Shown: positions 61,515 through 61,600 of the stretch, piece after piece
How positions within the stretch are numbered: position 1 is the first letter of the stretch
How the letters are laid out: each line of letters begins with the position of its first letter
DNA from: Escherichia coli
GTDB taxonomy: Bacteria; Pseudomonadota; Gammaproteobacteria; Enterobacterales; Enterobacteriaceae
Length of the DNA: 64,000 nucleotides
Direction: 5' to 3' (one strand)
Assembly: GCF_029227855.1 (NCBI RefSeq)
Contig: NZ_CP074356.1
Program-made: the position numbers and the translations under genes
The notes under the pieces: generated by a model
Seen by the model: only the letters and a program-made list of their open reading frames with translations
Databases searched by the model: none
Told to the model about the DNA's origin: nothing

Positions 61515-61600
61515 TTTTCGCTGTGACATTCGCTTTGTCAGCTGTGACAAGCTCCGCAAATCGTGACAATAACCGCTTATGTCTCTATGCCTGACAAGAC
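61515..61600. promoter_or_regulatory. feaB/feaR divergent promoter region with tandem TGTGACA/GTGACAA repeats (candidate AraC-type FeaR sites)
   Basis: gctgtgaca occurs twice about 21 bp apart, with further TGACA-like copies downstream; seen directly, function inferred. Confidence 0.35.

Follow-up and report, generated by a model that had tools for sequence, protein, structure and literature searches.

The TGTGACA direct repeat of the feaB-feaR spacer in Escherichia coli: a very probable FeaR operator of the feaB promoter

The operator of the araBAD promoter, araI1-araI2, consists of two half-sites of about 17 bp that lie 21 bp apart, centre to centre, and are bound by a dimer of AraC, the promoter-proximal half-site overlapping the -35 element. 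XylS acts at the Pm promoter through direct repeats of TGCA-N6-GGNTA with a 21-bp periodicity, and its proximal site overlaps the -35 element by a few bp. For FeaR, a site of the form TGNCA-N8-AAA, present twice in each of the tynA and feaB promoters, was reportedly described by Zeng & Spiro in 2013 (J Bacteriol 195:5141). No statement of the FeaR site sequence was found in the accessible full-text literature. Both tynA and feaB are activated by FeaR (PMC4640556). Aldehydes made by TynA activate FeaR, which then binds PtynA and has been modelled there as a dimer, and the FeaR/PtynA pair is in use as a biosensor for neuroactive amines (PMC11542736).

The window analysed here is a 64-kb stretch of E. 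coli DNA, the last 9 kb of which comprise the paa/tynA/fea region (Table 1). The divergent genes feaB and feaR are separated by a spacer of 235 bp (61453-61687; 40% G+C), and the interval 61400-61750 matches, at 100% identity, many E. coli chromosomes in which feaB and feaR are annotated. Among complete E. coli genomes, this spacer interval is found in 3290 of 5426, four copies being located on plasmids. The fea cluster is therefore an accessory component of the species. According to Pfam, FeaR is composed of an AraC_binding_2 domain (residues 12-185) and an HTH_18 double helix-turn-helix domain (residues 219-299), that is, the two helix-turn-helix units and the N-terminal ligand/dimerisation domain of AraC/XylS-type regulators.

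Table 1. Genes, putative FeaR half-sites and promoter-like elements of the region, with positions in the window
Feature	Position	Strand	Remarks
paaZ	55328-57373	+	
Distal putative FeaR half-site, tynA promoter	57491-57506	+	TGGCAcacctgccAAA; conserved in Pseudocitrobacter, Enterobacter, Trabulsiella
Proximal putative FeaR half-site, tynA promoter	57512-57527	+	TGGCAggtgcaggCAA; 21 bp after distal copy
-10-like hexamer, tynA promoter	57549-57554	+	TAATGT; starts 21 nt after proximal half-site
tynA, periplasmic copper amine oxidase	57621-59894	+	RefSeq annotation; Pfam Cu_amine_oxid and N1/N2/N3 domains
feaB, phenylacetaldehyde dehydrogenase	59953-61452	-	RefSeq annotation of identical E. coli sequence; Pfam Aldedh, E 2e-161
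-10-like hexamer, feaB promoter	61486-61491	-	TACACT (TAGACT in most relatives); conserved TA(C/G)ACT
Inferred -35 position, feaB promoter	61509-61514	-	AAGTGA, poor TTGACA match; 17-bp spacer upstream of -10-like hexamer
Proximal putative FeaR half-site, feaB promoter	61513-61528	-	TGTCAcagcgaaaAAA; holds first GCTGTGACA; matches TGNCA-N8-AAA
Distal putative FeaR half-site, feaB promoter	61534-61549	-	TGTCAcagctgacAAA; holds second GCTGTGACA; matches TGNCA-N8-AAA
feaR, AraC-family activator	61688-62593	+	RefSeq annotation; Pfam AraC_binding_2 and HTH_18/HTH_AraC

The initial annotation of this DNA had pointed to two copies of gctgtgaca about 21 bp apart in the feaB-feaR divergent promoter region and had interpreted them as direct-repeat FeaR sites two helical turns apart. 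Both copies are present as described: the window contains GCTGTGACA at two positions only, 61520-61528 and 61541-61549, 21 bp start to start. It forms the core of a 20-nt direct repeat with the same 21-bp spacing, detected by the repeat finder, whose copies are 80% identical (61509-61528, TCACTTTTTTCGCTGTGACA; 61530-61549, TCGCTTTGTCAGCTGTGACA). The heptamer itself shows no enrichment, with four occurrences of TGTGACA and three of TGTCACA in 64 kb. Exact 9-mer repeats 10-30 bp apart are likewise at chance level (five loci in the window versus 4.8 in dinucleotide shuffles). The informative word is TGNCA-N8-(A/C)AA on the opposite strand, rather than TGTGACA. Read in this direction, the feaB copies are perfect matches to TGNCA-N8-AAA; each half-site measures 16 bp, a 5-bp linker lies between them, and the pair is oriented toward feaB, 76-97 nt upstream of its ATG.

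A search of the tynA upstream region for the same repeat, proposed in the initial annotation, gave a divided answer. Literal TGTGACA is missing from the functional tynA position because the tynA promoter uses TGGCA, and the literal word is specific to feaB. The two-part repeat is present there at the same 21-bp spacing (57491-57527, plus strand, TGGCAcacctgccAAAcaaccTGGCAggtgcaggCAA), 109-130 nt upstream of the ATG, with one mismatch (CAA) in each copy.

If up to one mismatch is allowed, pairs of TGNCA-N8-AAA with the 21-bp spacing occur twice in the window (both strands), upstream of feaB and tynA only, against a mean of 0.065 in shuffled sequences, none of 200 shuffles reaching two. This test is partly circular, since it was on these two E. 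coli promoters that the motif was first defined. No pairs were found at other spacings from 16 to 31 in the 64-kb window. Only the pair is informative, because single copies of the motif are at chance level (18 in the window, 15.2 expected). A comparison of the sequences upstream of tynA and feaB, ungapped and unbiased, ranked the pair of distal half-sites first among 16-mers (13 of 16 positions, p ~0.075). Over 37 nt, the best window of the same comparison, made with the two E. coli promoters alone, was a different alignment and was non-significant.

It is very probable that each GCTGTGACA copy is the core of a 16-bp half-site and that the two half-sites make up an operator for FeaR activation of the feaB promoter. 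The motif, its orientation, the parallel at tynA, the conservation in relatives described below and the domains of FeaR all agree with this reading, as the initial annotation had proposed. Compared with the FeaR site reported in 2013, the feaB repeat shows no detectable difference in organism, promoters, motif or copy number. The repeats are presumably the sites of Zeng & Spiro 2013 seen on the opposite strand, and in all likelihood the feature is already known as the FeaR operator published for the feaB promoter.

The conservation of the site was followed in ten related loci (141 kb) encoding FeaR proteins with 65-97% identity to that of the window, four obtained by a FeaR scan of genome contigs and six by a protein search with contig look-ups. 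They belong to a second E. coli, two Pseudocitrobacter, Pluralibacter, Kluyvera, Raoultella, Enterobacter cloacae, Trabulsiella, Klebsiella oxytoca and Scandinavium and, with the window, gave a spacer alignment of 11 sequences from nine genera. The feaB and feaR genes are divergent in all ten loci, with a spacer of 229-241 bp. A pair scan of the 141 kb returned 16 pairs, including ten of ten feaB upstream regions, five of five tynA upstream regions in the loci that extend to that promoter, and one stray pair, and all other spacings from 14 to 32 gave two pairs in total across the ten loci; these counts are not independent, since the relatives share ancestry. All 30 half-sites (30/30) share T1 G2 C4 A5 and (A/C)14 A15 A16, the positions N3 and N8 being variable.

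Within the 11-sequence alignment, the 37-bp block is the best-conserved part of the spacer, and indels between the two copies are found in none of the 11 sequences. Thirteen of the 14 specified motif columns are invariant, compared with 8 of the 18 N positions and 47 of the 198 remaining columns (Fisher 3e-7 and 0.0075). In the distal feaB half-site, CTGTGACA is invariant in the 11 sequences from nine genera, and AAA is changed to CAA in Kluyvera and K. oxytoca. In the proximal feaB half-site, TG, CA and AAA are invariant; differences among genera are seen at the central N (T or A) and in N8. The central N gives TGTCA in most sequences and TGACA in Pluralibacter and Scandinavium, and the N8 variants of the alignment are cagcgaaa, cggggata, gagagata and cacagaca. 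The proximal half-site of tynA reads TGGCA-N8-CAA in all five promoters examined. The linker is conserved within each promoter and differs between them, being (g/a)cgaa at feaB (61529-61533), with four of five columns invariant, and (c/t)aacc at tynA (57507-57511). This linker conservation may reflect an extra, promoter-specific constraint.

The tynA gene is not always a neighbour of feaB. In Pluralibacter, Kluyvera and Raoultella the locus examined does not contain tynA; in K. oxytoca and Scandinavium the locus includes just the 3' portion of tynA, which is separated from feaB by intervening genes. All five of these loci (5/5) keep feaB and feaR as a pair, together with the FeaR sites, so the putative feaB operator persists without an adjacent tynA.

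In ten of ten loci, exactly 21 nt lie between the proximal half-site and the conserved -10-like hexamer of feaB. The distance is the same for tynA in four of five loci and is 22 nt in Trabulsiella; the tynA hexamer reads TAGGGT in Pseudocitrobacter and CAGGAT in Enterobacter, the latter sequence also standing 1 nt further on in Trabulsiella. With a 17-bp spacer upstream of the -10-like hexamer, the -35 position of feaB would overlap the proximal half-site by 2 bp. A scan of the feaB-feaR spacer detected neither a consensus sigma-70 promoter nor a terminator. Judged from sequence, the geometry of both feaB and tynA fits that of an AraC-type class II activator.

The feaB site resembles araI1-araI2 of araBAD in having direct-repeat half-sites 21 bp apart and a regulator of the AraC family with two helix-turn-helix units; the predicted overlap with the -35 position would be a further parallel. 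However, the half-site sequence is different, and the sensor domain of FeaR is AraC_binding_2 (PF14525), not the arabinose-binding domain. Moreover, AraC without its ligand forms a loop to the distant O2 half-site, whereas no such distal half-site is evident at feaB. With the Om sites of XylS at Pm, the feaB site shares a direct repeat with a 21-bp periodicity and a two-part half-site, in which the first box resembles TGCA and the second follows after about one turn. The XylS sites differ in their second box, which is GGNTA instead of the A-tract of the FeaR sites, and in a first box that lacks the central N; in addition, the effectors of XylS are benzoates.

A mechanism of activation may be proposed on this basis. 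Each FeaR subunit would apply its two helix-turn-helix units to TGNCA and to the A-tract about one helical turn away, and the two subunits of a dimer would occupy the direct-repeat half-sites from one face of the DNA, at a distance of 21 bp or two turns. Since the proximal half-site would abut or overlap a poor -35 element, bound FeaR could recruit RNA polymerase in the class II manner, the promoter-proximal subunit presumably touching the polymerase. Activation would occur when FeaR is loaded with an aromatic aldehyde made by TynA, and the matching arrangement upstream of tynA would couple amine oxidation to aldehyde oxidation. Such a site would explain the co-induction of phenylacetaldehyde dehydrogenase and TynA by aromatic amines in E. 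coli and its relatives, and the exact operator matters for promoter engineering of the FeaR/PtynA biosensor.

The pentamer TGTGA is common to this repeat and to CRP sites, and the TGTGA words could be regarded as CRP half-sites (TGTGA-N6-TCACA) and not as FeaR sites. This reading is very improbable. It draws on the distal copy, which reads TGTGAcaagctCCGCA (61543-61558), that is, TGTGA-N6-CCGCA, and matches 8 of the 10 CRP core positions. The distal TGTGA is conserved across genera together with GCA(A) at the right distance, and the invariance of CTGTGACA in this copy goes beyond what TGNCA requires. For the proximal copy, however, the CRP reading fails, because the right half is lacking (CTTTG) and TGTGA is not conserved, being replaced by TCTGT, TCTGA and TGTGT in Pluralibacter, Trabulsiella and Scandinavium, where TG-CA is kept. 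CRP-like matches with up to two mismatches are at chance level in the window (24 versus 28 expected), and CRP leaves unexplained the A-tracts, the 21-bp direct repeat and the TGGCA pair at tynA. The CRP site is moreover a palindrome bound by one dimer, in contrast to the direct repeat with A-tracts found here.

CRP might at best occupy the distal site jointly with FeaR. A CRP-like sequence, TGTGAcaagctCCGCAaat, is located at 61543-61561, overlapping the distal FeaR half-site; its GCAA is invariant across genera, and the element lies about 70 bp from both inferred divergent start sites. The suggestion that the distal half-site is a composite of a FeaR half-site and a CRP-like element (61543-61558) is tentative and rather unlikely. 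If it is true, one CRP dimer, bound to DNA that FeaR also uses, could make feaB and feaR alike responsive to carbon status. CRP control of feaR has reportedly been proposed in the literature, so that this reading, too, may not be new.

The FeaR operator of feaB is very probably limited to the two half-sites. The initial annotation had also mentioned further TGACA-like copies downstream, and these do exist: a third, cGTGACA, at 61562-61568 and a fourth, ccTGACA, at 61590-61596. The idea that all four copies (61522, 61543, 61562, 61590) form one FeaR array, in which the downstream copies drive feaR autoregulation, is if anything slightly less credible than the CRP reading. It would find some comfort in TGACAagctccgcAAA (61545-61560, plus strand), which also matches TGNCA-N8-AAA and points toward feaR, and in GTGACAAnnnnCCGC, repeated at 19 bp (family D3 of the repeat finder). 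However, the third and fourth copies follow at spacings of 19 and 28 bp, outside the 21-bp register. The third has no A-tract (TGACAataaccgcTTA), and its place is taken by unrelated sequence in Kluyvera, Raoultella, Trabulsiella and K. oxytoca; the fourth is already missing from another E. coli strain (CCTTGCA) as well as from all other genera of the alignment. Irregularly spaced and not conserved, the extra copies (61562, 61590) thus fall outside the site, and their membership was rejected on the alignment. Nor do the repeats lend support to FeaR autoregulation, because no plus-strand pair directed toward feaR occurs in any spacer examined at spacings of 14-32. The site probably serves feaB; a service to feaR is not demonstrable.

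The weakest reading, a functionless repetition of a 9-mer that arose by chance in AT-rich DNA of the spacer, agrees with the equal frequency of close 9-mer repeats in shuffles but can be dismissed for practical purposes because of the conservation of the 37-bp block, the best conserved of the spacer across nine genera, where substitutions affect only the N positions, and it is further contradicted by the same architecture at tynA. Matches to the NsrR motif AANATGCATTT with up to two mismatches are also at chance level in the window (98 versus 102 expected).

Since the FeaR site was reportedly defined by experiment in 2013, the present analysis adds little as a discovery. Modest additions are the cross-genus constraint on its bases, the finding that the extra TGACA-like copies are unconstrained, and a hint of extra constraint on the distal half-site. 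The relaxed (A/C)AA element and the fixed 21-nt distance to the -10-like hexamer are further additions, perhaps already published.

On the feaR side of the spacer, TTATTTCCTATAGT at 61601-61614 is conserved across genera as TTCTTTCnTATAnT, and the TATAGT that it contains (61609-61614) is likely to be the feaR -10 hexamer. This hexamer is not preceded by a recognisable -35 element, which suggests that feaR itself depends on an activator. Another block, GCAACAcAAATGCAACAAT at 61638-61656, is nearly invariant across the nine genera and lies 30-50 bp upstream of the feaR start codon. Two TGCAACA words stand in it at a distance of 11 bp, enclosed by an imperfect palindrome (TTTATTG...CAATAAA), and the block may be a regulator site or a promoter element for feaR.

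Upstream of tynA, just 3' of the paaZ terminator hairpin (57387-57408), a near-perfect palindrome, TGTGACgtTGTCACA, is located at 57427-57441, at a distance of about 60 bp from the FeaR sites of tynA and upstream of them. It holds the only literal TGTGACA occurrence near tynA. As a FeaR site it was rejected; it is present in both E. coli and absent from Pseudocitrobacter, Enterobacter and Trabulsiella.

The paa promoters are cAMP-CRP dependent, and consistent with this the divergent paaA-paaZ spacer contains TGTGACGAATTTCGCA (55156-55171), one mismatch away from the CRP core. Elsewhere in the window, a perfect CRP core, TGTGATTAATTTCACA, is found at 14228-14243.
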